From: an uncultured Pseudomonadota bacterium
GTDB lineage: Bacteria; Oederibacteriota; Muellerivitia; Muellerivitales; Muellerivitaceae
Length of the DNA: 64,000 bases
Reading direction: 5' to 3'
Assembly (NCBI GenBank): GCA_963843375.1
Contig: CAWJKT010000011.1
Location: 160,001-224,000, forward strand
Shown here: positions 46,438-63,158 of the stretch, piece after piece
Position numbering within the stretch: position 1 is the first letter of the stretch
Layout: each line of letters begins with the position of its first letter
The notes under the pieces: generated by a model
What the model was told of the DNA's origin: nothing
What the model saw: the letters and a program-made list of their open reading frames with translations, nothing else
Database searches by the model: none
Position numbers and translations under genes: made by a program

Positions 46438-46548
46438 ACGTATTCAGCGTGATTTGAAAGTTAAAAATTTTGAGTTGAGGCTATGCTTGATTTTCGTTCA
46501 ATAAAACGAAAATGCCCGGATCTTAAAATTTTTATTTGTTTTAGTAAT

Positions 46549-46635: not shown

Positions 46636-46671
46636 ATCTCCATTAAAACCTACGAAAACCGCGCCTCCAAA

Positions 46672-47775
46672 CTACACACCGGCCATTTTGTTTTCCGGAA
46701 ATCGCTTCTTTGTCATAACCGTGTCATTGAACTGTCTGACACGCCTCAAGGCCTCTTTGCGGTCCTCCCGGTCGATCCTATCGTACCGGCGGAACACCGC
46801 GTGGGTCTTGTGGCCCGAAATGGACATAATGGTCGAGTCGCTTACTCCTGCCTTCCTGAAGTTCGTAACCGCGCAGTGCCGCAGATCATGGAAATGAAAG
46901 TCCGAGATATTAGCACGCTGGCACGCCCTGAGGAAAGCCGTTTTTGGATCTTTCAACCCGTGGCCCCGGAAGTTGAAGACGTAAGGACTGCCCAAAACCT
47001 TGGGCGTCCTCCTGAGAAGGTCGATTAAACCCTCGTCCAGGGGGATTTCCCGCGCTTCCTGGGTCTTCGTGTCCTCGGACTTCAAGGTGATGACGCCTTC
47101 CTTCAAGTCCACCTGGTCCCACTTGAGCCCCGTAATCTCGCCCCGCCTCATGCCGGTGAAATAAGCCAACTGCACGACGGGCCGGTAATGGGGAGAGCAG
47201 TTCTCCAAAAGCCTAAGGTATTCCTCCGGGGTCAGCGTCCGGTTCCGGCAATTTTCCCGGAACATCCTGACGCCATCCACAGGATTCCGGTCGATCTTCC
47301 TGTCCAGCACCGCCCTGCGGGCGATGGTTTTCAGGCAGGCAATCTCCCGGTTCAGGGAAGCGTTTTTCAAACTCTTTCCCTGTTCCTCGGCTTTCTTCCT
47401 CCGCTCCTTCAAAAAATCCTCGACCATGCTGGGGGTCAGGCTTGCCAGGGGCCGCCCTCCGAAATAGACCTTCAAGGCCTTCACGGAGAAAAAATCCCTT
47501 CGGTAGCTCTTCTTCCGGGACTCCGAAAAGGCCAGGAACGCGTCCGCCGCCTCGTCGAAAGTCACCTGTGGTTTCTCGCTGGGCAGGAACTCTCCCGCCA
47601 CGATTTCCTTGGTATGCTCGGCCAAAATCCTCTTGGCCTGGGCCGCCGGAATCTCGCCCAACCTCACCCTTTTGCGCTTCCTCAATCCTCCTTCCATAAT
47701 GAAGTAATCCAGGAAATACCCCTTCGCATCCTTGCGGAGATGTTGGGGCAACCCGTGAACATTAGGCTTGCTCAT
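46672..47775 (-). CDS. Tyrosine recombinase / phage-type integrase
   Basis: TGMRRGEI (R), TKT (K), FHDLRH (HxxR), SGHKT (H), RRY (Y). Confidence 0.96.
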   Translation of the reverse strand: MSKPNVHGLPQHLRKDAKGYFLDYFIMEGGLRKRKRVRLGEIPAAQAKRILAEHTKEIVAGEFLPSEKPQVTFDEAADAFLAFSESRKKSYRRDFFSVKALKVYFGGRPLASLTPSMVEDFLKERRKKAEEQGKSLKNASLNREIACLKTIARRAVLDRKIDRNPVDGVRMFRENCRNRTLTPEEYLRLLENCSPHYRPVVQLAYFTGMRRGEITGLKWDQVDLKEGVITLKSEDTKTQEAREIPLDEGLIDLLRRTPKVLGSPYVFNFRGHGLKDPKTAFLRACQRANISDFHFHDLRHCAVTNFRKAGVSDSTIMSISGHKTHAVFRRYDRIDREDRKEALRRVRQFNDTVMTKKRFPENKMAGV

Positions 47776-48412: not shown

Positions 48413-49278
48413 GACGCCACCTCGCTTGGCTTTTCCCCGGCGGGGGCCGTCCTCAGGATGGGATCCTTCACGAAGGGAAGGTATTCCCATTCCAGGTTCA
48501 CCCAAGGCACCCGCCTAAAAGGCAGGCTTGCCGCCTTCTCGAAAAAGGTAAAAGCCCAAAGGGTCCGGTTCCGGGGGTCGTGTTTCAGGAAGGTCGAAAG
48601 CCCCTGCACCAGCCTTACGGCCTGGGCCTTGTTCTGGCTGACGATCAACCGGCAGGCCCCCGGGAAGTCCCGGTCCAGGTTCAGGACCAAGGCCGTCATT
48701 TGGTCCCGGTTGTAGGGGGAGTGTTCGTATTCCAGGACGAAGGCGTAACGTTGGCCTTCCAGAGCGGCCTGAAAGTACCCGTCCGGGGTCCGGCGGTTCA
48801 GCCTTTGAAGCTTGGTCCCGGCCAAGTCCCATCCCCGCCCTTCCTCCAAGGCCTTCTTCCACGACATCTTGAGGCCACACCGCATCTCGTAGTCGGAAAG
48901 CCAAACCAAGTCCTCCAAGGCCTTGTCCTCCTCCCAATGGATTCGCATTTGAAGCACCCGCTTGTCGTGCTCCCTCTCAAAGGGGTTGATATGGGGGGAG
49001 CGGATTTCCTTGGAGGTTAGGATTCGGGCAAGATCCGATAGGCTCTTCAAGGCGGGCCGGGACAGGTAATAGAAGGTGTCGTCGTTCGGGAGGTTTTGGG
49101 TTTTGAGGAGCCATCCCCGGCTGACCAAGCCCCGCAGGTGGACACAGGCGGTCGTATAGCATTGGGCAGGGTGGAACTTCCGGTGAAAGAGCCGGGTGGT
49201 GATGAACTTGTTGGAATGGGTGTAAGCCAGGATGTCCAGGTCCCTCGGTTCGAGGGCGGTCTCAGGCCGCATTTTCAT
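48409..49278 (-). CDS. Replication-relaxation (Replic_Relax / MOB_C-like) relaxase
   Basis: N-terminal wHTH (EPRDLDIL...LRGLVSRGWL), EHD, PDG...VLEYEHS PD-(D/E)xK-like core; directly downstream of a coupling protein. Confidence 0.72.
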   Translation of the reverse strand: MKMRPETALEPRDLDILAYTHSNKFITTRLFHRKFHPAQCYTTACVHLRGLVSRGWLLKTQNLPNDDTFYYLSRPALKSLSDLARILTSKEIRSPHINPFEREHDKRVLQMRIHWEEDKALEDLVWLSDYEMRCGLKMSWKKALEEGRGWDLAGTKLQRLNRRTPDGYFQAALEGQRYAFVLEYEHSPYNRDQMTALVLNLDRDFPGACRLIVSQNKAQAVRLVQGLSTFLKHDPRNRTLWAFTFFEKAASLPFRRVPWVNLEWEYLPFVKDPILRTAPAGEKPSEVAS

Positions 49279-51058
49279 CCCCCATGGGGCTTCCAGGGTT
49301 CTTGGGGCCCGGTTCCGGGCCGCCGCCGCTTTCTCCTACCAGCTCGGGGATTGAGCTTTCATTGGTTCCATTGCGCCGGGGCCGGTGGGCTACCCCGTTT
49401 TGGGTCGTAAAGTAGTCCCAAGGCGGGTCCGCCGGCCGCAGGGAGGTTTGGAAGACCTTGACGCCCGATTCGCCCACTACCTTGACGATGGCCTGGCCCA
49501 CCTTGAGTTCCTTGATGCGGTTGGGGTGGAAACGGAACTTCTCCACCGGAGGCTTGGAATAGCCGATCACATCCCCATTCGTCCCAAAGCTCTCCACCCG
49601 GTAATCCGGGTCCCGTTCGGTCCCGAATTGCCGGGCGAAGCCCTCCGCCGTGTCCGGGTCGTTCACCCGCAGGATGATCTTGTTGCTGGCCGTGTTCATC
49701 ACCTGTTCCAGGAATTCCTGGGAGACGCCCCTCAGGTCGCCCATGGACTGGTGGGCCAAGAAGAGGTTCACCTGGGCTTCCCGGCACTTGTTGATGAAGT
49801 CGATGAACTTGGGATAAGCCAGGTTGTAGAACTCGTCCAGGAAGACCCTAAAGGGCTTCTCCGGGACGGCCCGGTAGCGGTCGGCCAACTGCTCGGCCAG
49901 GTCCATCATGGCGAGGATGCAAAGGGGCTTGGCGTCCTCCGGGTAACGGGCGTAGTCCGGGGAGAAGAGGAAGATTTGCCCGTACCGGACGACCTCCGAC
50001 ATCTTGATATCGGGCTCCCGGACATTGAGCAGGTGGGACCACTCGCTGTTGCAGAACCTTTGGAGTTTGTTGATGAGCCCCGAAAGCTCCATGCGGCGGT
50101 CCTTGGGGGATTTGGAAAGCCACTGGTCGCGGAAATACCGGGCGTAATGGGTGTTGGGGTATTTCGCGCAAAACCAGGCGATGGTCCTAAAGGTTTCCAC
50201 TTCCTGGGTGGCCGTCAATAGGTCTTGGAAGGTGATGGTCTTGATCGCCAGTTTCAAAAGGCCGATCAGGTTGTGGAGGAAAACCTCGGCCAAATCCCGG
50301 TAGTAAGGTTCGGCGTTGTGCGAATCGTAATAGAGCGCGGCGAAAGCCCGGTTGGCAATGGCGTCCGGGTTGTCCCCGTAAAGGGAGTTGTAGGTGTGGG
50401 ACTTGAGGATGTCCACCAAGTTGAAATGGCGGACGAACCGGCCTGGGGCCTTAAAGGCGTAATAGGCCACATCCCGGAGCATGTTGGATTTGACGTCCAG
50501 GATGAAGCAACCCAAATCCTGCCGGATGGTTTGTTCGATGAAAGGCTTGATGACGAAATGGGTTTTCCCGGTGCCGGTCCCGCCGACGATCTGGACATTT
50601 TCGTGCAATGAGGCAGTAGGAATACCGACTTCTCCATAAGGGTCCAACACCAACGGGAATTTCCCATAGCTGGTTTTGGTTTTCTTGGTCGGCTTCCAAT
50701 AGAGGCCCCACATAGCCCCTCCGGTCAACAGAACCACTAGGAGAAGCCAGGGAAGGTTATAGGCGGGGAAAAATGGATTTAAAAAGGAAACCGCCGCCGA
50801 ATTGCAAACCGCCAGCTTGGTAGGGAGGAAGAGGTTGTTATTGTTCCGGTAAAGAAAGAGAACGGCGTAGGGGACAAGGAACAGCCACATCCACCAACCC
50901 CAAAAGTGATGGTTGGTGAAATCCGCGTCCGGAGTTGAACTCCCGATAAAATCCAGTGTCCAAAAAGGCATGGTGATATTGGCGAGGACAAGGATGTGAG
51001 GCATGAAGCTGGGATAAAAAATACACTTGTTCTGGTTATCTTGCGCTGATTCCGACAC
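49262..51058 (-). CDS. Type IV coupling protein (VirD4/TraD-like ATPase)
   Basis: N-terminal TM helices; GGTGTGKT Walker A, VFLDEF Walker B, LAHQSMGDL, NTASNKIILRVNDPDTAE, IKELKVGQA. Confidence 0.9.
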   Translation of the reverse strand: MSESAQDNQNKCIFYPSFMPHILVLANITMPFWTLDFIGSSTPDADFTNHHFWGWWMWLFLVPYAVLFLYRNNNNLFLPTKLAVCNSAAVSFLNPFFPAYNLPWLLLVVLLTGGAMWGLYWKPTKKTKTSYGKFPLVLDPYGEVGIPTASLHENVQIVGGTGTGKTHFVIKPFIEQTIRQDLGCFILDVKSNMLRDVAYYAFKAPGRFVRHFNLVDILKSHTYNSLYGDNPDAIANRAFAALYYDSHNAEPYYRDLAEVFLHNLIGLLKLAIKTITFQDLLTATQEVETFRTIAWFCAKYPNTHYARYFRDQWLSKSPKDRRMELSGLINKLQRFCNSEWSHLLNVREPDIKMSEVVRYGQIFLFSPDYARYPEDAKPLCILAMMDLAEQLADRYRAVPEKPFRVFLDEFYNLAYPKFIDFINKCREAQVNLFLAHQSMGDLRGVSQEFLEQVMNTASNKIILRVNDPDTAEGFARQFGTERDPDYRVESFGTNGDVIGYSKPPVEKFRFHPNRIKELKVGQAIVKVVGESGVKVFQTSLRPADPPWDYFTTQNGVAHRPRRNGTNESSIPELVGESGGGPEPGPKNPGSPMGDENAA

Positions 51059-51525: not shown

Positions 51526-52257
51526 TTAAGGTTTATAACTTTTTTGGATAACATCCTTTAGTTGTTGAATGGTCAACCAAGGTTTTTTTCTGTGTATCAT
51601 TCGATGACAGTTAGCGCAAACGATAGAAAGGTCGTCGATTTTTGGTTTTTGTTCCGATTTCAATTCAGATAAGGGAATGACATGGTGGCACTCTGCGAAG
51701 TATTTTCCTAAGTCTCCATATTTGTCTTCAAATACAAATGTACATACTTCGCATTCCAGTTTTCCACGTTTTTTAATTACGAAGCTTTTTTTCTTTTCTA
51801 CGTTTTCAGGTTTCCGTTCACGATATGAATGTATCCTTGTTAAAATCCTGCCTTCTGGTGCAGTATCCAGTTCTTCTAAGTCTGAAGGTGTTTCAACCTC
51901 CGGATTATCGGGTTTAGCAATGGAGTTTTTTATTGCAACGGCGGTTTTGTTAAGTTCTTCTGGTTTGTCCGAAAATTCCTTCCAGACATCTTTTTCAAGT
52001 TTACTTCCAGCAGTTAGACCCTTGCCTTCGTAAGTTGGGTCATACTTTAAAAAATTACACAACTTCATATAAACACCATTTGGGTTACGGTATTTTTCAT
52101 CGCGAGTGTTAAATTCTTGAAATGGCATCCGATTTAATATTTGACTCAACTCGGTAATCTTGGGATTATTTTTAGAAAAACTTTTCCACTTTTTTTCGGT
52201 AAAATAAAAATCAAGGGCCAGAATTAATTCGTCTCGCGACCAATTAGGATTACTCAC
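51526..52257 (-). CDS. McrA-like HNH endonuclease (putative modification-dependent, type IV)
   Basis: NPNWSRDELILALDFY N-terminal domain; EG...H..RER, CEVC.F.F...YG, ECHH..PL, CANCHRMIH. Confidence 0.85.
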   Translation of the reverse strand: MSNPNWSRDELILALDFYFTEKKWKSFSKNNPKITELSQILNRMPFQEFNTRDEKYRNPNGVYMKLCNFLKYDPTYEGKGLTAGSKLEKDVWKEFSDKPEELNKTAVAIKNSIAKPDNPEVETPSDLEELDTAPEGRILTRIHSYRERKPENVEKKKSFVIKKRGKLECEVCTFVFEDKYGDLGKYFAECHHVIPLSELKSEQKPKIDDLSIVCANCHRMIHRKKPWLTIQQLKDVIQKSYKP

Positions 52258-52273
52258 AAAGTTCTTCTTTCAA

Positions 52274-52663
52274 TCAGAAGATTCCGATTTTCTTTTTAAC
52301 CGCTCCGGGGTTTTTTACAATTTGACATTCCCAAAGGGTAAGCACCCTCCAGCCTTTTTTACGGAGCAACCGTTTTGTTCTCATATCCCTTTTAACATTA
52401 TTTTCAAGTTTTGGTTTCCAGTAGCTAAGTTTTGTTTTTGGCATTCTTCCGTCTTTACAACCCTTATGTTGATGCCAAAAACAACCATGAACGAAAATAA
52501 TCATCTTCTGTGAATCAATGACAAAATCGGGTTTGCCAGGAAGTGCCTTAAGGTTCATTACAAATTTAACCCCTGCGTTTTTTAAAATTTTTTTAACGCT
52601 TCTTTCTGGAAACATACCCTTGGATTTTATGCGTCTCATATTTTCACTTCTGCTAATCAACAT
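52274..52663 (-). CDS. vsr: Very short patch repair endonuclease
   Basis: RSENMRRIKSK...PE, LPGKPDFV, FVHGCFWHQH, YWKPKLENNVKRD, GWRVLTLWEC. Confidence 0.95.
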   Translation of the reverse strand: MLISRSENMRRIKSKGMFPERSVKKILKNAGVKFVMNLKALPGKPDFVIDSQKMIIFVHGCFWHQHKGCKDGRMPKTKLSYWKPKLENNVKRDMRTKRLLRKKGWRVLTLWECQIVKNPGAVKKKIGIF

Positions 52664-53333
52664 AAACCTCCGATTTTAAACCACAATTAACAGCTTCCCA
52701 AAGGTATCTGCTGGCAAGTGTTCTATGAGGCTTCCATTTCAATCCGATTTTCATGACTTGATCTGGCGTGGGCTTCTTTTTTAAAGAGTAGGCAATTTGA
52801 ATACCGCGTTGTAAGCCAATATCAAAACAGGGTAAAACATCCGGTCTTTGCATGTGGAAAATTAAATACATCTCGGCCGTCCATCTTCCGATTCCATTTA
52901 TTCTTTGTAATTCTTCTAAAACAATATTATCAGGCTTGGAATTCAGTTCTTTAAGATTCAATTTTCTTTCTTTTACTGCTTTACATAGATCACGTAAAAA
53001 ACCAATTTTTTGTTTTGATATCCCAATTTTTCTTAGGACTCTAAATGGGGTCCTCAATACTTTGTTTGCTGTTGGATTTTTTCGGGAATATAAAGCGGCA
53101 AAACGTGAAAAGATAGTCCTTGCAGCAGCGCTACTTAATTGTTGCCCAATAATAGCTCTCAATAAAGCTTGCAATGCCGGACGAGGTACTGAACTGATTA
53201 ATGAAAGTTTATTATTTTGAATTGCCTTAACACGCTTAATTAATTTCCCAAGTTTGGGGTCTCTTTTTGATAAATGTTTTTCACCGATTCTTTTCAAAAT
53301 TATTTCCTGTCTAAGAATGTTCGGAATGGCCAT
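52653..53333 (-). CDS. AlkA/Mag-family HhH-GPD DNA glycosylase
   Basis: RAIIGQQLSSAAARTI, INGIGRWTAEMYLIF...RPDVLP..DIG, WKPHRTLASRYLW. Confidence 0.92.
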   Translation of the reverse strand: MAIPNILRQEIILKRIGEKHLSKRDPKLGKLIKRVKAIQNNKLSLISSVPRPALQALLRAIIGQQLSSAAARTIFSRFAALYSRKNPTANKVLRTPFRVLRKIGISKQKIGFLRDLCKAVKERKLNLKELNSKPDNIVLEELQRINGIGRWTAEMYLIFHMQRPDVLPCFDIGLQRGIQIAYSLKKKPTPDQVMKIGLKWKPHRTLASRYLWEAVNCGLKSEVYVD

Positions 53334-53435
53334 CAATTATCAAAACACCTGTTACAAAACAGGGCAACATATACACCCTAACAATACCATGTTAAACTTT
53401 CGCAATCACAGATTCCGTTCTAAAGGCATTTTTTA

Positions 53436-54095
53436 ATGACATTTAACGAATACAAAAAAATGCTTCCGAAAAACTTAAGCATCGTTAAAGAGAAAATTCT
53501 TAAACGTCTTTGGGAAGAGGGAGATAAATTTCCTAAAGGATGGGTTAAAAGTTCCGAATTGCTTTCGATTACAAAGCAAAAGTACTTTGACAGAAGAACT
53601 CGCGAATTGCGGGATGAAATGGGTTGCGATATCGAAACAAAGATTATTGAGGCCGAACACAGCTATCGATTAAATTCCCCAAAAATAAACATATCTAATC
53701 CACGACATTATTTACCAAATAATCAAAAAGAAATCCTATTTGAAAAAAATAATTTCACCTGTTCAGTTTGTGGAAAAAAATACAAAAAAGAAGAAAAAGG
53801 ACTCCAATCTGATCATAAGATTCCATTAATGCGTGGCGGAACCAACGAAGAAAGCAACTGGCAACCACTCTGTGTGGAATGCAACGTAATTAAAAGAAGG
53901 GCTTGCGCTGGTTGTAAATTGGATTGTAAAACTTGTTCCTGGGCTTTTCCTGAAAAAATCTCTGCAAGGACACTTATACAGTTGCCCCCTAAACTTAATC
54001 AGTATTTATATGAACATTGTAAAAACGAAAACCAAACTTTAAGTGAATTTGTAGCTGAGGCTATTGAACAATATAAAACTAAGAACGAAGATTAA
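53436..54095 (+). CDS. HNH type II restriction endonuclease candidate (FseI-like), C-terminal RHH-like segment
   Basis: YFDRRTRELRDEMG N-terminal motif; CSVC...QSDHKIP..RGG.....N.Q.LC.ECN..KR.AC.GC...C..C.WAFPEK; convergent with a C5 methylase. Confidence 0.75.
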   Translation: MTFNEYKKMLPKNLSIVKEKILKRLWEEGDKFPKGWVKSSELLSITKQKYFDRRTRELRDEMGCDIETKIIEAEHSYRLNSPKINISNPRHYLPNNQKEILFEKNNFTCSVCGKKYKKEEKGLQSDHKIPLMRGGTNEESNWQPLCVECNVIKRRACAGCKLDCKTCSWAFPEKISARTLIQLPPKLNQYLYEHCKNENQTLSEFVAEAIEQYKTKNED

Positions 54096-54128
54096 AAATC
54101 CGAACAAATTCAATTCTCAAATTTGTTT

Positions 54129-55145
54129 TTAATAAGATGCTGCTCTTTCCATCATTTCCAATAATGGTTCTTTCAAACCCATATAAGCTGGAACAATCTT
54201 TCTATTACCACATAAGGCCCTATTAATTTCTTTTCCAACAGCCTTTGCAACTGGTGGAGGAAAGGCGTTACCAACTTGTCTATACGCAGCAGTTTTACCT
54301 CCAACAAATTTCCAGCTATCAGGAAACCCCTGTAAACGGGCAACCATTTGAACTGTCAATTTAGGACGTGCATTTTTGGGAAAATCTGAGGGAGGTGGGA
54401 AATTAGCAATTCCTAATCCATCAACACCAAGGTGTGACCATTGTTCTTTGGCTCTAGTAGGGCCAAGATCAGGTCCTCCATGTTTTTTTGATCCACCAAC
54501 TATTGTTGGAGCAATTCCATTTGCAACTTTTACCCATTTTTTAGCTCCGGCCCATCCATTCGAGGTCATCAAGTCTAGTAATTCATAGCCAACGGTTTTT
54601 TCACACTTTTTAGGCTTAGGCCATGTGAATTTATCGGCATCTTCTCTAAGTAACGCAACTAAAATGAATCGGGGTCTTAATTGTGGGACATTGTAATCTG
54701 ATGCATTAAGCATTCTCCAATCGGCTCGGTAACCCAGGTCATTTAGAGAATTTAAAATATTTTTTCGATAACTGACGAATTTTTGGCTGGCCAAACCTTT
54801 TACATTTTCCAACATGACCGCTCGGGGCCTAATCTCGGAAACTAAACGTAAAGCATCGGGAAATAAATCGCGTTCATCCTTAGCTCCAAGTTGTTTACCT
54901 GCGATTGAGAAGGGTGGGCAAGGGACTCCGCCGGCAAGGAGATCAATTCCTTTGTAAGGCTTCCCATTAAAATCATGCAAGTCACCTTCAATTACATTCC
55001 ATTCAGGTCTGTTTACCCGCAGAGTTTTACAAGCATGGGGATCAATTTCTACAACAGCGACATGGTTAAAACCCGATTGTTCCAACCCAAGTGCTTGGCC
55101 ACCGCCTCCGGCACATATTTCTAAAGAAGTTAACGAATGCTTCAA
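54129..55145 (-). CDS. DNA (cytosine-5) methyltransferase, NgoMIV/NaeI/FseI-like
   Basis: EICAGGGG, GGVPCPPFS, ENV, QLRPR, target-recognition region APTIVGGSKKHGGPDLGPTRA, RQVGNA. Confidence 0.93.
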   Translation of the reverse strand: MKHSLTSLEICAGGGGQALGLEQSGFNHVAVVEIDPHACKTLRVNRPEWNVIEGDLHDFNGKPYKGIDLLAGGVPCPPFSIAGKQLGAKDERDLFPDALRLVSEIRPRAVMLENVKGLASQKFVSYRKNILNSLNDLGYRADWRMLNASDYNVPQLRPRFILVALLREDADKFTWPKPKKCEKTVGYELLDLMTSNGWAGAKKWVKVANGIAPTIVGGSKKHGGPDLGPTRAKEQWSHLGVDGLGIANFPPPSDFPKNARPKLTVQMVARLQGFPDSWKFVGGKTAAYRQVGNAFPPPVAKAVGKEINRALCGNRKIVPAYMGLKEPLLEMMERAASY

Positions 55146-55215: not shown

Positions 55216-56874
55216 TTATATAAAAGTTTTAAGCGCTAATTGCGCAAGATAAACACTCCTTTGATTAATCGACGTTTCATCCCAAGTTAAATATTTTCCA
55301 CCTATTTCCTTGGTTAATTCAATTTTCGAATCGTTGTAAATAACCACCTTTTCCTCAAAACTACTATTGGCCGCCTTTTGATTTTTTCTTGGGCCAAGCA
55401 AAGTGAGATTTCCTAAACGCCAAAGGAAAGGCTCCAAAACCGAACGATTTGACCAAGTTCCGCTTTTTGGATTTTGAGGAAAAATGTGCTCTAAATTTAC
55501 ATTGCCTTTTGCTGTTGTTTCAATTTTCTTCCCTTTTTCAATTCCGGATAAATATCGCAAGATCCATTTTGATGCGTTGGAATCAAAATCATTTTCTTGA
55601 ACACTAGAAAGAACTTGTTGATTGGTTGGCATCTTCTCTCTTAGCTTAGTACAAACAAATTGAGCTTTTTGTCCATCATTTATTGATTTTGCTTCCAAAT
55701 AAAAAGCATTCTCTAAATATTTTGTATCAATATTTCCGGCAAGCTTAAATCTTACCGAAAAAACAGCGACAGCTTTAACAATCTTTGAAAAATCAGAAAT
55801 ACCATATTTGTTAAGCGCACTCATAAGAAGCGGCATCGAATTAAAGTATTTAAAAGCGTTTAAAATCCCAGCCAAATAAATTTTTGTATTTTCATCAAAT
55901 TCCGCATCATGATCAAAATCCAATATTCTTGTGTATGCTTCGGCGCCCAATTCCAAATGTCGGGAATACTTAACACTATCTAATCCTTTTGTTTGAAGGC
56001 TTTTTTTGATTTTTCTATATAAACTCGATGCCTTTTCATCACCGTGCTGTGACACCCAAAAATGCCTTAAAAATCTTTGTACATCGATTGGACCAAGCGT
56101 GCGAAGCATATTATCCCATGTTCCTCGGACCCGATTGTGCTCACCTTTATTTGAACATTTTTGCATCAATAGATTTAGTAAAAGGTCCGGGGCAGATAAT
56201 CGCATTCCGCGATCATTCAATGATTCAAAAATCGCAAAAGAATCAGCGAAGTCACTTATTTTTATTCCAATTACTATTACACCATTCGCCAAACAATCCC
56301 GAATATCTTCTAATCGTTTTTCCCAACGACCACCCGTTTTCTTCGGCAATTCTTGTTTAATTCTTTCTAATATCTTTTCATAAGCATCTTTTAAAAGCTT
56401 ATGAGAACGGATTTTTGAAGTGCCAATAGTTGCTTCAAAATCTTGAATGTTATTTAAAAAAAAGATTTTATCGACTTCACCAAGAACTAATGAATATTGA
56501 GAATTTCTTTCGTTTTTTAAAATAAAATCTCTATGAATATCTCTCGCTAATTGATTTTCTTTGCTAAATTCCTTTGCCAAATTACGAAGAGCACAAAACA
56601 TTATGGTAGCGGTTGTAATACGTTGCTGACCATCCAAAAGGGAAATTTCATTGCTCTTTTCCTGAAGGACTAAGGGTCCAAGGAAATATTTGGATGCTAT
56701 AGATTTCTGTTTGTAAACTTTTTCAAATTCAAAAAAATCATTAAGAAATGCTTCGATTCTATCTTTATCCCAGCTAAAACCTCTTTGATAAACCGGTAAG
56801 AAGATAGAGCGAGTTTCATTTCTGCCTAAAAGTCTTCCAAATGAATAGTTTGCTGCCTCAAAGGTGCTTGGCAT
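55216..56874 (-). CDS. DUF262-DUF1524 protein (GmrSD/SspE-like)
   Basis: LPVYQRGFSW, LDGQQRITT, IFESLNDRG, NLEHIFPQ, LGNLTLL...N. Confidence 0.92.
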   Translation of the reverse strand: MPSTFEAANYSFGRLLGRNETRSIFLPVYQRGFSWDKDRIEAFLNDFFEFEKVYKQKSIASKYFLGPLVLQEKSNEISLLDGQQRITTATIMFCALRNLAKEFSKENQLARDIHRDFILKNERNSQYSLVLGEVDKIFFLNNIQDFEATIGTSKIRSHKLLKDAYEKILERIKQELPKKTGGRWEKRLEDIRDCLANGVIVIGIKISDFADSFAIFESLNDRGMRLSAPDLLLNLLMQKCSNKGEHNRVRGTWDNMLRTLGPIDVQRFLRHFWVSQHGDEKASSLYRKIKKSLQTKGLDSVKYSRHLELGAEAYTRILDFDHDAEFDENTKIYLAGILNAFKYFNSMPLLMSALNKYGISDFSKIVKAVAVFSVRFKLAGNIDTKYLENAFYLEAKSINDGQKAQFVCTKLREKMPTNQQVLSSVQENDFDSNASKWILRYLSGIEKGKKIETTAKGNVNLEHIFPQNPKSGTWSNRSVLEPFLWRLGNLTLLGPRKNQKAANSSFEEKVVIYNDSKIELTKEIGGKYLTWDETSINQRSVYLAQLALKTFI

Positions 56875-56983
56875 TTTTGGTCCTAGTTTTAATTTGCACA
56901 ATCAATTTAGAAGGTAAATTCTAATCTAGCATTATTCTAATTTTTTTTATAAGAAAAAGGTTTTCTATTGGATACAAATTTCA

Positions 56984-57017
56984 AAAACCCAAAAGCCCAT
57001 AAGGGCTTTTGGGTTTT
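56984..57017 (-). terminator. Rho-independent terminator downstream of radC
   Basis: AAAACCCAAAAGCCC-ATAA-GGGCTTTTGGGTTTT perfect 15-bp stem. Confidence 0.8.
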
Positions 57018-57027
57018 AATTTTGGTC

Positions 57028-57519
57028 TTAAATTAAGAGTCCGGCTTGGCGGAAGGAAAAATGCCCTTCGTGGGTAACTATCAAGTGGTCATGGACCGTG
57101 ATGCCCAAAGCCCTGGCGGCGGTCAAAATCTGGCGGGTTAAAGCCTTGTCTCCTTCGGAAGGTTCCAAGCTTCCGGCAGGGTGGTTATGGCTGAAAATAA
57201 TCCCCGTTGCGTCCAATTCCAGGGCCTTCTTGAGGACTTCACGGGGATAAACGGCGGTATGGTCTACAGTCCCTTCCTGGTTTAAAACCACATCTAAAAC
57301 GTGGTTCCGATGGTCAACGTACATGGTCATAAATGCCTCGTTCCGCTTCCCTCCGATGTACTGTTTGAAATACGCCACTACATCCTCCGGGCCTGAAACA
57401 ACCGGCCCTCTTTTGTAGTCCGCCCTGGCCTCTGCCCAAGAAATCGGTGGAACGGTCGGCGGTGGCACCGCCTTAACGTCGAACTTCATCTCCTCTTCCT
57501 GCACTTTGCTTGTTTTCAT
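57028..57519 (-). CDS. radC: RadC-like JAB domain protein (short mobile-element type)
   Basis: E.F, GTVDHTAVYPREV, SHNHPAG...PSEGD, VHDHLIV. Confidence 0.92.
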   Translation of the reverse strand: MKTSKVQEEEMKFDVKAVPPPTVPPISWAEARADYKRGPVVSGPEDVVAYFKQYIGGKRNEAFMTMYVDHRNHVLDVVLNQEGTVDHTAVYPREVLKKALELDATGIIFSHNHPAGSLEPSEGDKALTRQILTAARALGITVHDHLIVTHEGHFSFRQAGLLI

Positions 57520-57546
57520 CTCCGTGGCTCCTTCTGATGGAGCGCG

Positions 57547-57768
57547 CTCCGGGCCGCCCCTTCACCAACCGGATGAGGGGCGGCCCGGAGAATTTGGCCG
57601 ATAGATAGTGGAGATCACTCTCTATCGGCGCTTAATTGTTTTCGAGTTTTCCGAGGGAGTGCGATAGCGAAGCGACAGCATCCCAGGCCTGGTGACCCGG
57701 ACACGCTTTAGGTGTCCGAGGGCAGGCGACCGGTCGCCAAGGCTGGTCGGAATCAGGAGAAAACAGCC
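57547..57768. other. GC-rich cluster of inverted repeats
   Basis: 15-bp perfect IR 57547-61/57576-90; stem 57597-57629; palindromes 57683-92 and 57725-38; 7-bp stem 57698-57718. Confidence 0.8.
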
Positions 57769-57892
57769 AATCGTAGCCATTTCTCGCTCTTGTCCTGCAA
57801 AATATTTGTCTTATTGTTTGTAGCGTTACCTTTTGTGCCTTGGTCTCGCCTAATGAAGTGAGGGGAAACACGCCGGTCCAAAGAGGTTCATA

Positions 57893-58519
57893 GTGACGGG
57901 TGACGAAGAATCAAAATTATTGGCCGGGCTGAGGGAAAGCGACCCCAAGGCACAAAAACAATTTTGGTCAATTTATTACAACCAAATATTTGGACACGTT
58001 CAAACGTCCCTCGCCAAAGGGCATTCCAAGGAAGACTCCGAGGAAATAGTAAGCGAGGTATTTCGACGTATTTTTCGGGACATTAAATCGTTTCAGGGAA
58101 CCAGCACCCTGAAAACGTGGATATTTACGATTGTTAGACACGTCGCAGCAGAACATTACCGGCCCCAACGGAATGAATACACGGCCCACGCACCAGAAAA
58201 GTTCACTGAGTTTTCCGAAGAGACGGTTCCCAACAAGCTCGATGAAGGGAAGCCTATCGAGGCAGCCCTGGACGAATTGGAGAGGAAAGAGCAGTTTTCC
58301 AGTGTTCTTTCACTTTTGGACGAACTAGAAACGCAACAAATCCAAACAGTTTCTTATCGCATCCTCCAGGGAATGTCCGTCAAAGAGACCTCGGATGTCA
58401 TGGGCATTTCTGAGGGCGCGGTCAAAATGTCTTTTTATAGGGCGGTGCTCAAACTCAAGGATCTTGCAGCTTCGCGAAGAGACCTTGACGATTTCACCTC
58501 AACACAAGGAGGGAAATAA
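57893..58519 (+). CDS. ECF-type sigma-70 family factor
   Basis: Region 2 EDSEEIVSEVF...FQGTSTLKTWIFTIVRH; region 4 GMSVKETSDVMGISEGAVKMSFYRA. Confidence 0.9.
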   Translation: MTGDEESKLLAGLRESDPKAQKQFWSIYYNQIFGHVQTSLAKGHSKEDSEEIVSEVFRRIFRDIKSFQGTSTLKTWIFTIVRHVAAEHYRPQRNEYTAHAPEKFTEFSEETVPNKLDEGKPIEAALDELERKEQFSSVLSLLDELETQQIQTVSYRILQGMSVKETSDVMGISEGAVKMSFYRAVLKLKDLAASRRDLDDFTSTQGGK

Positions 58520-59313
58520 TGAACAAGAAATATAACGATGCTGAAAAAGCGGAAATTGTTTCCCAGTTCATCGACCAAATGAACTTGTCTGGCTCTGCTT
58601 CAATTGAGATTTTTCTAGAAGAGTACCCTGAGCTTTCAAATGAGCTCGAACCTCTTTTAGGACTTTCATTGGATTTGAAAAAAGACTTTCAAAAAACGTA
58701 TTTGGCAAATGAAGAGGTTGAGAAGAAATTTTTAAAATTTTATGAAAAGCCGACCGCGAACCGGAATCAGGTTGTTGCGGTTGCCTTAGATCAGCGTCCC
58801 GATTTTATGTTGCTCTTACTTAAGATGATGGATGGCGTAAAAGGTGTTACTAGGTTAACGAAATTGTTGTTTTTGATGGGGAAAGAAGCCCGTTTCGATC
58901 AATACGTTAACAATTACTACGCCCATGCCGCCGATAATTTTGGACCGTTTGATGATGTTATTTTCCAAGATATCGAAGCCCTCAAGAAAGTCGGTTTCAT
59001 AACAGAAGAGAATCTTGTTTTAAAAAGCGACGATGAGGATTCGAAATACGAAGGCCAACTTTATCCAAATAAAGTGCAAAAGAATTATGAACTGACTGAT
59101 AGCGGCAAAAAATTCACGGAAGAACTATTCAAAAAGGTTGAGCAGACAAGGCCAGAAGTCATCAACGATCTAAAAAAGATAATTAGTAAATATGGGAAGC
59201 TGTCTTTAAAGAGTCTTTTGACCCGTGTTTATACAGATTATCCGGAATACACAGTCAAATCGAAAATAAAAGACCAAATATTGGGGAATAAGAAAGATGA
59301 AAAAAAGAATTAA
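58519..59313 (+). CDS. Putative sigma-partner N-terminus fused to YwgA/Panacea(DUF4065)-like wHTH domain
   Basis: TAATG coupling to the sigma gene; IEIFLEEYPELSNELEPLL; GVTRLTKLLFL...NFGPFD..IFQDIEAL...GFI...YELT..G...LL..VY..YPEY..KS.I. Confidence 0.6.
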   Translation: MNKKYNDAEKAEIVSQFIDQMNLSGSASIEIFLEEYPELSNELEPLLGLSLDLKKDFQKTYLANEEVEKKFLKFYEKPTANRNQVVAVALDQRPDFMLLLLKMMDGVKGVTRLTKLLFLMGKEARFDQYVNNYYAHAADNFGPFDDVIFQDIEALKKVGFITEENLVLKSDDEDSKYEGQLYPNKVQKNYELTDSGKKFTEELFKKVEQTRPEVINDLKKIISKYGKLSLKSLLTRVYTDYPEYTVKSKIKDQILGNKKDEKKN

Positions 59314-59731
59314 GGAAAGACAACTTTTGAAACCGGTGTGTCGGTTGTTTCCGAAACTTGTTCCTGTCACTGAGTTCCCGTTCAAAGGGAAGCTTATTGA
59401 TGTCTTGTTTATTAAAAGGAAAACAGGAAAAGGAAATTTAATAGCTATCGAATTGAAAATAAAAAAGTGGAAAAAGGCAATGCGGCAGGCTGCGGTATAT
59501 CAGTTGTTCGCGCATAAGGTTTACATAGCGCTCCCCAACGATCGATTAAACGACAGGGTGTTGGAAACTGTTACGAACCAAGGGATAGGAGTTATATCGA
59601 TCGACTTAGAAAAGAAATTACTGAAAGCCAAAATTGTGAGAAGACCAAAGCCCACAAACTTCTTAAACAAAAAGTACACAGAAGAAGTCTTGGATTTAAT
59701 TAAGAAATCCAAATATGTGGGGGTCGGATGA
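59297..59731 (+). CDS. Small PD-(D/E)XK nuclease-fold protein
   Basis: E...ID...AIELK...WKKAMRQA..Y..FA..VY.A.P...GIG. Confidence 0.78.
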   Translation: MKKRIKERQLLKPVCRLFPKLVPVTEFPFKGKLIDVLFIKRKTGKGNLIAIELKIKKWKKAMRQAAVYQLFAHKVYIALPNDRLNDRVLETVTNQGIGVISIDLEKKLLKAKIVRRPKPTNFLNKKYTEEVLDLIKKSKYVGVG

Positions 59732-61029
59732 AATTTCCAGCCAAACAGCCCATCGTTTATATTCGGCCTCGTCAGACCGATAAACAATTATTGGAAGATC
59801 CAAGGATTATTGGGCATTACCAGGGAATCCACATGCCGGCAACAGCTCCAGATGGAGTCAGAGAAATGATCCGTAATCTTGGCAAGCCAACCTTTATTGA
59901 TCCTGATACGTATTTTTACTCCTTGCCGCTTAAACGTTTATTTGCGGAAGAGAAAAAAACATTCAAACCAAGTATCGGAAGGTTGTTTGGGGAATATCAA
60001 AGCATCGGGGACGTTAGTGTTACCTCATCCCGTACGATTCCCGGAAATCCGTCCGAGATTCAGTTCTTTGTAAGGCGAGTCTTGGAATTTCAAAATAGCC
60101 GTTTGAACGGCCAAACAACTTTGGTGAATGCAAATTATTCCAAATATGCCGATTGGCAAAAAAGCTATGGAGAAGTTGTTAATTACGAGACCTCGACATC
60201 TGAACCAGAATTCCTAATACCGCCTTATTTTTACTTTGATAAACATGACAATGAAAAATACAAGTTGTCATTGGCATGCGCAAAAGCTGCCCTTCGTTCG
60301 AGACCAACGGGAAGTTCCATTTACCCGGTTATCTTTTTCTCAAAAGTCTTGCTTAAGAAGGGAGATGTAATACAAAAAATTGTTGATGACTATCTTGGAT
60401 TATCCGCGGACGGATTCATCCTTTGGATTAATGATTTCAAAGAAGAAAAAGAGCCGTTAGAAACTCTACTTGGGCTTTCTGCTTTAGTTAAGAATATTTC
60501 AGGGTCCAGAAAGCCGGTCCTGAAGTTGTTTGGCGGATATTTTTCACTTTTGCTTTCTCTAAATGGATTGACTGGTTTTTCATGTGGGTTGGGCTATGGG
60601 CAATCGAAAAATGCTTTCGCTTATGGTGCGAAGATGCGCGGGAAGTTTGAACCGAAGTATTACATCCAAGCTTTACATCGGGGTGTGGAGTTACCTGATG
60701 CCGAAAGATTAATACGATCTATTCCAGAATTGAGATGCTCCTGTGTTGTTTGCCAAAAGACTTTCGGTAGGAATTTTGACAATTTTTCAAAGATGAGCGA
60801 AGCCGGTATGTGCGAATGCCATTTTCTAAATGCGCGGCGACAGGAAATTAAAGAAATCATGGAAAAAGGCAAAGACTATATCTCCAGCTCAATCAAATTG
60901 ACAGCGAACTCATTCCAAATGAATTCATTAGTTGATGTTCGTGCTTTGAAAAATTGGGCCATGGTTTTGGATGAAATGGATCAAGCGGCAGGATCAAAAG
61001 TAATTAATATAAAAAGGTCCGGGGGGTGA
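59728..61029 (+). CDS. TIM-barrel protein with TGT-like CxCxxC...H Zn site
   Basis: ATGA overlap; FIDP.TY, LIPPYF, DGFILW, GFSCGLG, KYY...LH, CSCVVC...HFLNAR. Confidence 0.6.
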   Translation: MKFPAKQPIVYIRPRQTDKQLLEDPRIIGHYQGIHMPATAPDGVREMIRNLGKPTFIDPDTYFYSLPLKRLFAEEKKTFKPSIGRLFGEYQSIGDVSVTSSRTIPGNPSEIQFFVRRVLEFQNSRLNGQTTLVNANYSKYADWQKSYGEVVNYETSTSEPEFLIPPYFYFDKHDNEKYKLSLACAKAALRSRPTGSSIYPVIFFSKVLLKKGDVIQKIVDDYLGLSADGFILWINDFKEEKEPLETLLGLSALVKNISGSRKPVLKLFGGYFSLLLSLNGLTGFSCGLGYGQSKNAFAYGAKMRGKFEPKYYIQALHRGVELPDAERLIRSIPELRCSCVVCQKTFGRNFDNFSKMSEAGMCECHFLNARRQEIKEIMEKGKDYISSSIKLTANSFQMNSLVDVRALKNWAMVLDEMDQAAGSKVINIKRSGG

Positions 61030-61034
61030 TATCA

Positions 61035-61166
61035 GTGGCAAATTTTTTAGCTTTCAGGCCAAAAACTAAAACTAAAAGACCTGTCGAGTTCAAAACATCG
61101 AACGGTCAAAAAGTCCAATTCAATGCGAAGAGAAAACCGTTGAGAAGGACTAGGGTGAAGTTTTAA
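61035..61166 (+). CDS. 43-aa highly basic peptide (not in ORF track)
   Basis: GGGGGTG SD-like sequence then GTG; MANFLAFRPKTKTKRPVEFKTSNGQKVQFNAKRKPLRRTRVKF*. Confidence 0.5.
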   Translation: MANFLAFRPKTKTKRPVEFKTSNGQKVQFNAKRKPLRRTRVKF

Positions 61167-61218
61167 GAGGCAGGTTATTAATAAAAACCCGCTCTCCAAA
61201 AGTTGAAAGGAGTAAGCC

Positions 61219-61428
61219 ATGGGAAGGTTTCATTACAATCCGAAAGGATATCCCGTCTGGAATGACAGTGGAAAATTGGTTCATAGAACTGTGGCCAAAC
61301 CCAAAGGGAATCAAGTCACCCATCATATCGATGGGAATCCCAAGAACTTCAGAAGAGACAATCTGGTCAATATGAGCCCAAGTGAACATGCGAAACTTCA
61401 TGCGAGAGAAAGAAGGCGGCCTATGTGA
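61219..61428 (+). CDS. Minimal HNH endonuclease
   Basis: SD AAAGGAG; KGY...VHR.VA...HHIDGNPKN...DNL......EH..LH. Confidence 0.8.
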   Translation: MGRFHYNPKGYPVWNDSGKLVHRTVAKPKGNQVTHHIDGNPKNFRRDNLVNMSPSEHAKLHARERRRPM

Positions 61429-61503
61429 AGGCCTAGAAAGGGTTTGGGGCAAGGCCCCAGGAGAAGGGGGTGTGCCGAGGATCGGCAAAGCCAGCCGAGG
61501 CCA

Positions 61504-61522
61504 GGGGGAAGGCTTTCCCCCC
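61504..61522. terminator. Possible terminator hairpin between convergent genes
   Basis: GGGGGAA-GGCT-TTCCCCC. Confidence 0.45.
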
Positions 61523-61529
61523 AAAGAAA

Positions 61530-63158
61530 TTATTTTTTAGGATAAAGATTTCTAATTATTTTTGGGATATTTACTTGAGCTAGATATGTTTCGCAAAACT
61601 CAGCCGCTCTCGGATTCTCTTTTAAAACGTCTCTGGTGAATAAAATCAGTGATTCTTCCTTCAAATTACGAACCAAATCCGCGAAAACTTCACCTACATG
61701 CCAACGATTATGGGATAAAGCAAGTATGGGCAGGCGTTTTAATATTAGAAAATGGATTTCATTATCTGTGGTCCAGTTGAATATTTTTTTGTAAAGGTTG
61801 GCGATTACATCACAGTAATCAAACCCGACCTCATCGATGTAAGAATCGTAAGATTTTAAAACCTGTTTAAATATCGTTGGTTGTTTTTCAATCATACATT
61901 TAAAAATTGGTTCTGGAATTTTTGGAAATATTTGAATCATTGCATCGGAGTTATCTGTAACGTCCAAAATTGACTTAGCAAAATCTTCGATTTCTTTGTT
62001 AGATATACGCTCTTTGTCTTTGAGTTCTCTCGCAGTTTTCAAAATACTCTCTGCGGATTTTTCAAACTCGAAACCGTCTCCGAGTAGTAAATTTAAATCT
62101 TTTAAAAACACTTGAACACTTTGGTATCTCTGCTTCGGGTCACTGTGAGTTGCTTTATTAATTAAATAGAAAAATTTTCTTGGGATTAAATCAAAATCCA
62201 AAGTGGGGTATGGACTTTTACCAGAAAGTATTTGATACAGAAGTTTTCCTAAGGAATAAATATCAGCAGGTTCTCTGGCGCTTTTGGCGTCTTCCCATTG
62301 TTCAGGGGCGACGTATCCTATTGTTCCAATAGGAAAATTAGAAAGTGTTACGGAGGGAGAATCTCGATCAATAAATTTCCCTAAACCGAAATCCGAAATA
62401 GTCGGGAAAAGACCTTTGCCTTCCTGATTTGGAAAAAGCAATACGTTTAATGGTTTCAAATCCCTGTGAATAACGCCTTTGGAATGGGCAAATGAAACGC
62501 CCTCAGCTATTTGTAAAAAAAGAGGAATTTGTTTTTCTCCGTGGTTCTTTTTTAAATATTCCTCTAAGTTAAAGTATGCTTTTGGCATTACAAACCAGGG
62601 AAGTGAAGCTTCAAGGTCCATATCTAAAATGGGAACAATATTTTTGTGCTTTAATTGGGATTGAATTCTTACCTCTCTTTTAAATCGCCTAACATCTTCC
62701 TCTTCGTGATCCTCTTTTAAAAACTTCATTGCGTAAATAGTTCCGTCTTTTCCAACAGCTTCATATACTTCACCAAAGCCACCATTGCCAATTAAGCTCT
62801 TCAAGGAATATAGATTTCTTTTTGGGCTTGAGGGTTTTTGGGATTCTTTTTCTTTGTCCGAGTAGTTCTTCTGAACAACAAATTCGACTGAAACAACTTC
62901 TGGTTCATGATCTTGAAGAGGATATATGCCACGCACCATTTCAAGAATTAGTTTTTGGTCCTCAACGCTAATTTTTTTTGTTTTAACGTAATCTTTTGGA
63001 GGAAGGTAAATGATGAAATCTGAGATTAAGGAAAATAACCGGCTTCCATATTGGTTTGATACCCGTAATTCGCTTGAGGCATCTTCAAAGATTTCCGATA
63101 AATCTTCACGGCCTTCCGCGTTCAAAAGATCAATAAGAGTTTTTATATCTTCATCCAT
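61530..63158 (-). CDS. Soluble Hanks-type Ser/Thr protein kinase with extra N- and C-terminal domains
   Basis: GNGGFGEV, YAMK, HRDLKPLN, DFGLGK, GTIGYVAPE, DIYSLG; no TM helix. Confidence 0.93.
   Translation of the reverse strand: MDEDIKTLIDLLNAEGREDLSEIFEDASSELRVSNQYGSRLFSLISDFIIYLPPKDYVKTKKISVEDQKLILEMVRGIYPLQDHEPEVVSVEFVVQKNYSDKEKESQKPSSPKRNLYSLKSLIGNGGFGEVYEAVGKDGTIYAMKFLKEDHEEEDVRRFKREVRIQSQLKHKNIVPILDMDLEASLPWFVMPKAYFNLEEYLKKNHGEKQIPLFLQIAEGVSFAHSKGVIHRDLKPLNVLLFPNQEGKGLFPTISDFGLGKFIDRDSPSVTLSNFPIGTIGYVAPEQWEDAKSAREPADIYSLGKLLYQILSGKSPYPTLDFDLIPRKFFYLINKATHSDPKQRYQSVQVFLKDLNLLLGDGFEFEKSAESILKTARELKDKERISNKEIEDFAKSILDVTDNSDAMIQIFPKIPEPIFKCMIEKQPTIFKQVLKSYDSYIDEVGFDYCDVIANLYKKIFNWTTDNEIHFLILKRLPILALSHNRWHVGEVFADLVRNLKEESLILFTRDVLKENPRAAEFCETYLAQVNIPKIIRNLYPKK

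Follow-up and report, generated by a model that had tools for sequence, protein, structure and literature searches.

The DNA we analysed, referred to here as the window, is a 64,000-nucleotide stretch of contig CAWJKT010000011.1 (positions 160,001 to 224,000 of the forward strand, assembly GCA_963843375.1) from an uncultured Pseudomonadota bacterium, placed by GTDB in the Oederibacteriota. Towards its end lies a compact run of six open reading frames (ORFs). A sequence-only reading had picked out this run as a candidate undescribed system made up of a sigma factor, an antitoxin-like partner, a nuclease, a protein resembling base-exchange enzymes, a basic peptide and a small HNH protein. All six ORFs and the overlaps between them are present:

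57893-58519, + strand: ORF1, sigma factor of the extracytoplasmic function (ECF) type, 208 amino acids (aa), GTG start after AAGAGG
58519-59313, + strand: ORF2, putative Panacea-like partner, 264 aa, TAATG junction with the sigma gene
59297-59731, + strand: ORF3, predicted PD-(D/E)XK nuclease, 144 aa, 17-bp overlap with ORF2
59728-61029, + strand: ORF4, predicted zinc-binding barrel protein, 433 aa, ATGA junction with ORF3
61026-61166, + strand: ORF5, putative very basic peptide, 46 aa, GTGA overlap with the ORF4 stop
61219-61428, + strand: ORF6, stand-alone mini-HNH protein, 69 aa, with its own AAGGAG ribosome-binding site

The first four genes form the unit discussed below. As the sequence-only reading had anticipated, they recur together: homologues of the sigma factor, ORF2, ORF3 and ORF4 co-occur in unrelated contigs at 25-45% identity.

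ORF4 has a predicted transglycosylase-like fold

ORF4 matches no Pfam, NCBIfam, PADLOC or PHROG family. The Pfam model of tRNA-guanine transglycosylase (TGT; PF01702) gave no match to ORF4 at E <= 0.1, and ten further, distant members of the family had no Pfam match at E <= 0.01; the host's own Tgt scores 529 bits with the same TGT model. A word-indexed search returned 32 relatives, all of them lacking both a Pfam domain and an informative name, and the ESM Atlas neighbours of ORF4 are unnamed clusters only. When a profile of 28 relatives was run against 1.84 billion representatives it collected 1005 proteins at E <= 1e-3, with 502 at E <= 1e-30, giving a family of 1005 clusters at 50% identity. 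As Pfam, NCBIfam and PADLOC v2 have no model that detects these proteins, annotation pipelines currently miss them.

The AlphaFold2 (AF2) model of ORF4 (mean predicted local distance difference test, pLDDT, 84.5; predicted template modelling score, pTM, 0.85) was compared with 48,161 chains in an unbiased fold search independent of Foldseek. Five structures of the TGT superfamily ranked above the generic TIM barrels, for which Z was at most 12.6:

ArcTGT 1iq8: Z 21.0, 300 aligned residues
Tgt 3unt: Z 19.3, 299 aligned residues
QTRT2: Z 17.5, 283 aligned residues
DpdA 7ui4: Z 16.5, 271 aligned residues
Cap10 9ntn: Z 14.9, 274 aligned residues

The top 50 Foldseek matches in the PDB were all TGT or DpdA (best E 3.9e-5, TM-score 0.44-0.50), and the family profile, when compared with the PDB, matched ArcTGT 1iq8 exactly at the zinc motif (E 0.061). 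Among the viral structures of BFVD only distant TGT-like matches were obtained, with TM-scores of at most 0.47.

Conservation was counted over the 164 family members of at least 380 aa. The zinc site CxCxxC...H is formed by C337 (kept in 162/164), C339 (163/164), C342 (163/164) and H365 (163/164). Beyond the zinc ligands, P166 is present in every one of the 164 members, Y312 in 161, E373 in 158, D58 in 157, Y167 in 156, W233 in 153 and E239 in 140, with Asp replacing E239 in 9 more. In the model the conserved residues are found where the predicted strands end on their C-terminal side, which in a TIM barrel is the catalytic face; there D58, Q122, PPYF, W233, E239 and Y312 line a conserved, aromatic-rich and family-specific pocket. 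With TGT folds ranking first and the zinc motif in place, ORF4 is, at the level of its predicted fold, a member of the TGT superfamily, and the zinc-bearing TGT-like TIM barrel of the sequence-only reading stands.

TGT-fold enzymes are known as writers of 7-deazaguanine in tRNA, in DNA (DpdA) and, as found recently, in protein (Cap10). We aligned ORF4 with the host's own Tgt and with 30 Tgt sequences from the host phylum in three hhalign runs; in local mode the alignment extended over the full length. The resulting mapping of the active site is provisional because the alignments have a low probability (1.7-3%, E 0.015-0.029) and were made without three-dimensional superposition. In them the MFDC of Tgt, which holds the nucleophile Asp (MFDCV after strand 8), pairs with GFSC of ORF4, so that the Asp aligns to S285, a position filled by Ser in 104, Cys in 28, Ala in 14, Val in 12 and Thr in 4 of the 164 members. 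Opposite DEC(I)PYP stands (F/V)LIPPYF, which places the base-reading Asp at position 162, where the 28-row alignment has variable hydrophobic residues. E239 aligns to the Glu of the Tgt GGLxVGE motif, and the Cys triad and His of ORF4 pair with those of Tgt. Both canonical Asp positions of TGT would therefore, provisionally, be non-acidic in ORF4.

A predicted nuclease that is sometimes fused to ORF4

ORF3 is, judged from its motifs and its model, a minimal PD-(D/E)XK nuclease. Residues E7, D35, E52, K54, W58, Q64 and Y76 do not vary among the 11 aligned homologues; the ELK motif noticed earlier corresponds to E52-L-K54, and the D..ExK signature is intact in all 11. The AF2 model (pLDDT 88.9) is closest to 3dnx (Z 12.8), the nuclease domain of PaqCI (Z 11.0) and NucS (Z 9.3), with further matches to Can2, SdaI, FokI and many restriction enzymes, as well as to MspJI (Z 5.3) and AspBHI (Z 6.0). 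The invariant motif and the DNA nucleases among the fold matches uphold the assignment made in the sequence-only reading. The two proteins also occur as one chain: two of the 176 collected family proteins, P0105 and P0117, are natural ORF3::ORF4 fusions with the ORF3-like domain at the N-terminus, which a hidden Markov model (HMM) of ORF3 matches at 3.2e-31 and 5.8e-28, respectively.

ORF2 combines a Panacea-like domain with a sigma-linked domain

The C-terminal domain of ORF2 (about residues 93-260) matches PADLOC PDC-M19A (2.3e-14 over residues 93-260), and ORF2 also matches PDLC04504 (1.8e-4) and phrog_14939 (6.5e-10). The Pfam SocA_Panacea model (PF13274) matches four of 17 members of the ORF2 family at E <= 4.4e-4 over profile positions 1-109 of 113. 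These are L022, with 28.0 bits (cut-off 25.7), and L024, L023 and L068, with 21.6-23.4 bits. The window ORF2 is homologous to the same members (phmmer 2e-22 to 1e-19). In the ESM Atlas the C-terminal part falls mostly among unnamed clusters, one neighbour cluster having PF13274 in 21% of its members. The Panacea-like partner of the sequence-only reading is thus retained as a Panacea/SocA-like C-terminal domain reached by transitive homology, and not by a direct match. ORF2 may be an antitoxin.

The N-terminal domain, of about 90 aa, belongs in our alignment to a type that is conserved only in copies following a sigma gene, and the short, sigma-less forms of ORF2 lack it. The ORF2 proteins of L001 and L013 have a different N-terminus with the motif HxxxCxxC, which we take to be a zinc anti-sigma signature. 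None of the Pfam anti-sigma families matched ORF2 or its relatives. The N-terminal domain may bind the sigma factor and have an anti-sigma role, as is suggested indirectly by its distribution in the alignment, by the overlap of the ORF2 start with the sigma stop and by HxxxCxxC in L001 and L013.

We also modelled ORF4 together with the C-terminal part of ORF2 (residues 90-264). The predicted complex scored 0.43 (runs 0.00, 0.48 and 0.43) and the best of three controls 0.02; at least 22% of contacts are common to the runs, and the partner has a pLDDT of at least 76. Of the solved complexes, 116 of 157 reach the mark used for such predictions, as do 2 of 215 mismatched pairs, but scores of 0.60 or less that pass it are found for only 18 of the 157 solved complexes and for both passing mismatches. 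The prediction thus weakly suggests that ORF4 binds the C-terminal part of ORF2.

A dedicated sigma factor with a conserved predicted promoter

ORF1 matches the Pfam models Sigma70_ECF (4.1e-11), Sigma70_r2 (9.7e-9) and Sigma70_r4_2 (3.8e-9), all above their cut-offs, and NCBIfam TIGR02937 (sigma70-ECF) at 73.2 bits against a cut-off of 42.9, which confirms it as an ECF sigma factor. In 9 of the 24 distinct elements the cassette begins with a sigma homologue. In the window a bipartite motif precedes the sigma gene, 40-69 nt ahead of the start codon:

57824..57853, + strand: predicted ECF-type promoter, CGTTACC (57824-57830), 16-nt spacer, CGCCTAA (57847-57853)

Of the distinct sigma-bearing elements, 7 have upstream sequence, and all 7 show the pattern CGTTACC-N15-16-CG[C/A]CNA[A/T] 66-161 nt ahead of the sigma start. 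As the pattern was derived from the very sequences in which this was counted, the weight is carried by two controls. A looser form of the pattern has no match in 10 sigma-less loci, and in the 4.05-Mb host genome the strict form has a single match, at the operon, and the looser form two. A scan of positions 57000-61700 for sigma-70 promoters and terminators gave counts no higher than in shuffled sequence. The conserved motif supports the dedicated, autoregulating sigma factor of the sequence-only reading and may act as the promoter of the operon.

A further copy of the motif, CGTTACC-N16-CGCCAAA, was seen at L002:6471 (+), 393 nt inside the sigma ORF, where it could serve the genes downstream as an internal promoter or be a chance occurrence.

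Recurrence and gene order of the cassette

Scans with the ORF4 profile gave 2 loci in species genomes (Planctomycetota and Desulfobacteraceae), 23 in metagenomes and 1 in a viral contig (L026). Clustering at 90% ORF4 identity left 24 distinct elements, the window included, with the following architectures:

sigma-ORF2-ORF3-ORF4: 6 elements (window, L002, L003 group, L007, L015, L009/L020)
sigma-ORF2-ORF4: 3 elements (L016, L017 group, L026)
long ORF2-ORF4, no sigma: 3 elements (L001 group, L013, L008 group)
ORF2-ORF4, upstream cut off: 2 elements (L011, L014)
short ORF2, three-transmembrane (3-TM) protein, ORF3, ORF4: 5 elements (L022, L023, L024, L065, L068)
ORF3-ORF4, upstream cut off: 2 elements (L019, L025)
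ORF4-ORF3, reversed, no ORF2: 2 elements (L066, after a ResIII-type gene; L067, after a kinase gene)
uninformative: 1 element (L021)

ORF2 accompanies ORF4, preceding it and adjacent, in 19 of 21 assessable elements, and ORF3 accompanies it in 15 of 23. The ORF3/ORF4 pair persists in the distant elements L066 and L067, in reversed order and with no ORF2. In L067 the ORF4-like gene is immediately preceded by the kinase gene, in the same orientation; this may be linked to the kinase gene found beside the cassette in the window, or be a coincidence.

The 3-TM proteins of the sigma-less elements are encoded at these positions:

L022:954-1586
L023:1212-1838
L024:1378-2004
L065:7236-8057, - strand
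L068:1300-2091, - strand

One N-terminal and two C-terminal hydrophobic segments are found in 6 of 6 copies, counting a fragment in L025. The proteins form two groups that share this topology and have no BLAST similarity to each other.

The family is sparsely distributed. In the host phylum it was found in 1 of 99 genomes, the window's own, and in a sample of Planctomycetota in 6 of 401. A tblastn search with ORF4 gave no match in 50,697 sequenced phage records or in 72,556 plasmid records.

ORF5 and ORF6 had been counted as members of the unit, a proposal we reject. Neither has a relative (phmmer, E <= 0.01) among the ORFs of at least 40 aa in 26 related loci, and the small ORFs downstream of ORF4 in other loci are different proteins. 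ORF6 matches Pfam HNH_3 (28.7 bits, cut-off 24.8) and several PHROG HNH families, and could be either a relic or a minimal endonuclease of the homing type.

The cassette lies in a mobile defence island

GC content is 0.33-0.44 over most of 51-63 kb and about 0.46-0.61 in most of the remaining window. The genes around the cassette are as follows:

46346-46635: two tRNA-Ser genes at the island edge
46672-47775: tyrosine integrase, adjoining the tRNA-Ser genes
after the integrase: excisionase-like helix-turn-helix protein
49262-51058: TraG/TraD-like coupling protein
51526-55145: HNH protein, Vsr, HhH-GPD glycosylase, second HNH protein and Dcm C5-methylase
55216-56901: GmrSD, followed by RadC and then by the cassette
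61530-63158, - strand: Ser/Thr kinase, 542 aa, convergent with the cassette, with matches to PADLOC mad6 (1.1e-52), PD-T4-6 and Stk2
after the kinase: AbiEii, with AbiEi just beyond the window end

A 41-bp direct repeat occurs at 46596-46636, where it covers part of tRNA-Ser(tga), and again at window-equivalent positions 65514-65554, about 1.5 kb past the window end and just after the AbiEi genes. The two copies are probably att sites and delimit an integrated element of about 19 kb. The low-GC integrated element and its flanking genes, with the methylase, Vsr and HNH genes, GmrSD, the kinase and AbiEii, are as the sequence-only reading had described them. The island holds several kinds of defence gene, namely restriction-modification (RM), GmrSD, a PD-T4-6/Stk2-like kinase and AbiE. 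The run of genes at 51526-55145 resembles a 5-methylcytosine RM unit with Vsr repair, and its HhH-GPD gene might be a defence-type glycosylase.

The cassettes found elsewhere also have varied neighbours. A BglII-type RM system and a gene of the uracil-DNA glycosylase (UDG) family accompany L016, an SMC-like ATPase L001, and an HD phosphohydrolase and a WYL regulator L026. Prokaryotic E2 and ThiF/E1 genes (L007:5035-6960) and a ThiF-JAB fusion (L008:1721-4150, - strand) stand beside two further cassettes; these E1/E2/JAB genes are of the ubiquitin-like conjugation type seen in defence islands.

Comparison with known systems

In a PADLOC v2 scan only ORF2 matched any model (PDC-M19A), with no match for ORF3 or ORF4 at E <= 0.1, and we found no paper on the composition of PDC-M19. 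A literature search returned no description of the gene set, of a Panacea/anti-sigma fusion or of a TGT-like Panacea partner. The sequence-only reading had likewise recognised no named system here, and this still holds.

Among the closest known systems are the Panacea (PanA)/PanT pairs, with NetFlax (PMC10440598) named alongside them. Like the PanA/PanT pairs, the window unit places a Panacea/SocA-like protein first and couples it tightly to an unrelated downstream protein. The location on mobile elements and, in some cases, an accessory third gene are also shared with these pairs, as described in the main text of Kurata et al. 2022 (PMC8832971). The differences are that the partner here has a TGT fold, where that main text names neither a transglycosylase nor a sigma factor, that the Panacea-like domain of the window protein is very divergent and shares its chain with a sigma-linked N-terminal domain, and that the operon has its own ECF sigma factor and predicted promoter.

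With the TGT superfamily (Tgt, ArcTGT, QTRT1/QTRT2 and DpdA) ORF4 shares the TIM barrel and the CxCxxC..H zinc subdomain (Z 16.5-21). It differs in having no PF01702 match, in the non-acidic residues at the nucleophile and base-reading Asp positions of the low-confidence alignments, and in having a nuclease and a Panacea-like protein, not preQ0 genes, as its linked partners. Cap10 of type IV CBASS (9ntn), the fifth-best structural match to ORF4, is likewise a remodelled TGT fold employed in anti-phage defence. According to the accessible part of bioRxiv 10.1101/2025.04.06.647259, Cap10 keeps the catalytic Asp D248 and guanine-type reading residues, and works with the QueC-like Cap9 on the N-terminus of the CD-NTase. 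In contrast, no QueC-like or CD-NTase gene lies beside ORF4 in the window island or among the flanking ORFs examined.

A dedicated ECF sigma/anti-sigma pair over defence genes has a precedent in DdvS/DdvA, which, in the accessible part of PMC11506125, governs a CBASS/CRISPR defence island in Myxococcus. DdvA is a transmembrane protein, whereas the presumed anti-sigma part of ORF2 would be cytoplasmic, fused to a Panacea-like domain and encoded within the effector operon. The ORF3::ORF4 fusions recall MspJI (4f0p) and AspBHI (4oc8), in which a base-pocket reader is coupled to a PD-(D/E)XK nuclease, and the defence DNA glycosylases Dag1/Dag2 and Brig1 share the logic of a base pocket. Defence glycosylases acting against 7-deazaguanine phages are known and have other folds, and TGT-fold proteins are not mentioned in the accessible part of the preprint (bioRxiv 10.1101/2025.10.29.685425). 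Unlike in all of these, the reader here would have a TGT fold, and not an SRA-like or glycosylase fold, with a Panacea/sigma layer added.

A possible mechanism and its alternatives

The model we favour, tentatively and at a little less than an even chance, is that the cassette is a self-regulated conflict module, anti-phage or toxin-antitoxin-like, carried on mobile elements, with ORF4 and ORF2 as its core and usually ORF3. ORF4, with its zinc subdomain kept and its pocket remodelled, would bind and possibly excise a flipped-out base, most likely in DNA, and would direct or activate the ORF3 nuclease in the way that some restriction enzymes pair a base reader with a nuclease. The Panacea-like domain of ORF2 would bind ORF4 and so restrain a presumably toxic effector, while its N-terminal domain would sequester the sigma factor. 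A trigger would displace or degrade ORF2 and free the effector; the sigma factor, released along with it, would act on the operon's own promoter to raise transcription of all the genes. The model rests on the domain assignments, the recurring gene linkage, the ORF3::ORF4 fusions, the conserved motif before the sigma gene, the position of the cassette among defence genes on mobile elements and, weakly, the predicted ORF4/ORF2 complex.

Several observations weigh against this model. The low-probability hhalign runs agree with each other over the C-terminal half, where they leave ORF4 without the TGT nucleophile, and ORF4 could on this analogy be a non-catalytic scaffold like QTRT2. D58 is not paired with the Asp of the TGT TDSGG motif in these runs, and we do not equate the two because the N-terminal half of the alignment is unreliable. 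The window ORF2 has no direct match to PF13274 at E <= 0.1; all four ORF2 members that do match it are sigma-less forms, and one of them is above the Pfam cut-off. Weak PadR/winged-helix signals in the ORF2 family suggest that this domain may bind DNA. The ORF4/ORF2 complex prediction is weak. In the five elements with a 3-TM protein it could be this protein, and not ORF4, that is the true partner of the Panacea-like domain. As ORF3 is missing from 8 of 23 elements, the nuclease is not obligatory. Lastly, a second copy of the promoter motif stands just after ORF4 in L016 (9398-9715) and L017 (3294-3612), ahead of a conserved zinc-ribbon protein (CPxCHRPT...WCNKCRxWF) and a second sigma-like gene and, farther on, of PDDEXK_1, AAA_24 and helicase genes of a phage-like, replication type. 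The sigma factor may control prophage genes there, and the position of the motif suggests a role in these two elements that is regulatory and not defensive.

It is possible, though quite unlikely in our view, that the whole cassette is a switch of mobile elements, in which the sigma factor and ORF2 control transcription, for example prophage induction or early genes, and defence is secondary or absent. ORF4, with or without ORF3, would then be a sensor of DNA damage or of a nucleobase signal that tells ORF2 to release the sigma factor. Beyond the second motifs and the phage-like genes downstream of them, this account can draw on the integrase or serine recombinase directly beside the cassette in L002, L015, L016 and L026, on an integrase fragment before it in L024, and on the origin of the L026 copy in a viral contig collection; the membrane protein swapped in by sigma-less copies would fit an exchangeable output joined to a constant ORF2/ORF4 sensor. 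In the window, however, the motif is found only before the operon, and as this is its sole strict match in the 4.05 Mb of the host genome the sigma factor appears to control nothing else there. The island in the window is, moreover, small, and its annotated ORFs include a TraG-like gene but none for phage replication or structure, a nuclease with an intact catalytic motif would be odd in a pure sensor, and the 50,697 sequenced phage records contain no match. The constancy of the ORF2-ORF4 pair (19/21 elements), together with the 8 elements that do without ORF3, would also suit a Panacea-type toxin-antitoxin pair, an explanation we hold to be unlikely. Here ORF4 would be a toxin that damages the cell's own tRNA or DNA bases, for example by base removal, and ORF2 a type II antitoxin; ORF3 would be an accessory third gene, the sigma/anti-sigma arrangement would replace DNA-binding autorepression, and the role would be addiction or abortive infection and not a direct attack on foreign DNA. 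The order of the genes, with the Panacea-like gene first and the genes overlapping or nearly abutting, is that of a toxin-antitoxin operon, TGT enzymes act on tRNA, and the complex prediction for ORF4 and ORF2 (0.43 against 0.02 for the best control) weakly favours such a pairing. In the main text of PMC8832971, Panacea antitoxins pair with dozens of unrelated toxin domains and occasionally with accessory nuclease genes. Against this, ORF4 and the nuclease occur with no Panacea gene in L066 and L067, fusions of the two also occur, the structural neighbours of ORF3 are DNA nucleases, and in five elements it is a membrane protein gene that adjoins the Panacea gene.

The sequence-only reading had suggested 7-deazaguanines as an example of the bases involved, and a system of the Dpd type, in which ORF4 writes 7-deazaguanine or another base into host DNA and ORF3 cuts DNA that is unmodified, would follow the same line. 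ORF4 does resemble DpdA (7ui4) in structure (Z 16.5), the cassette ties a nuclease to it, and the host has both Tgt and QueF. DpdA itself also keeps the catalytic and base-reading Asp residues. In the ORF4 family the corresponding positions are Ser/Cys/Ala/Val/Thr and hydrophobic, respectively, in the low-confidence alignments. The related Cap10 keeps D248 together with D73, S74, D122 and K154 (accessible part of bioRxiv 10.1101/2025.04.06.647259). No preQ0-synthesis (QueC/D/E, FolE) or Dpd family was found among the 77 flanking ORFs of 12 loci or in the window island, and a search for QueC in the 80%-complete host genome gave two weak partial matches, neither convincing. The 7-deazaguanine idea is left with no support beyond the fold, and we regard a Dpd-like modification-restriction system as very improbable.

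The conflict module that we favour can be extended to a bolder account, which we find doubtful as a whole. A branch of the TGT superfamily, of about 1000 clusters at 50% identity, would have abandoned guanine exchange and would now be the base-recognising, and perhaps base-excising, arm of a restriction-like nuclease. It would be held by a Panacea/anti-sigma catch with two outputs, such that one trigger unleashes the effector and fires the sigma factor, which amplifies the operon. In some prophages the sigma factor would also switch on phage genes, and in the sigma-less relatives the sensor pair would be coupled instead to a membrane protein. If this is true, a large TGT branch without the canonical catalytic residues would add a new activity or a novel type of nucleic-acid sensor to the fold and provide a new class of effector for the biology of phage defence and toxin-antitoxin systems. 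The joining of antitoxin-type and anti-sigma domains in one protein, in an operon that has a sigma factor and a promoter to itself, would give such modules a new mode of regulation.

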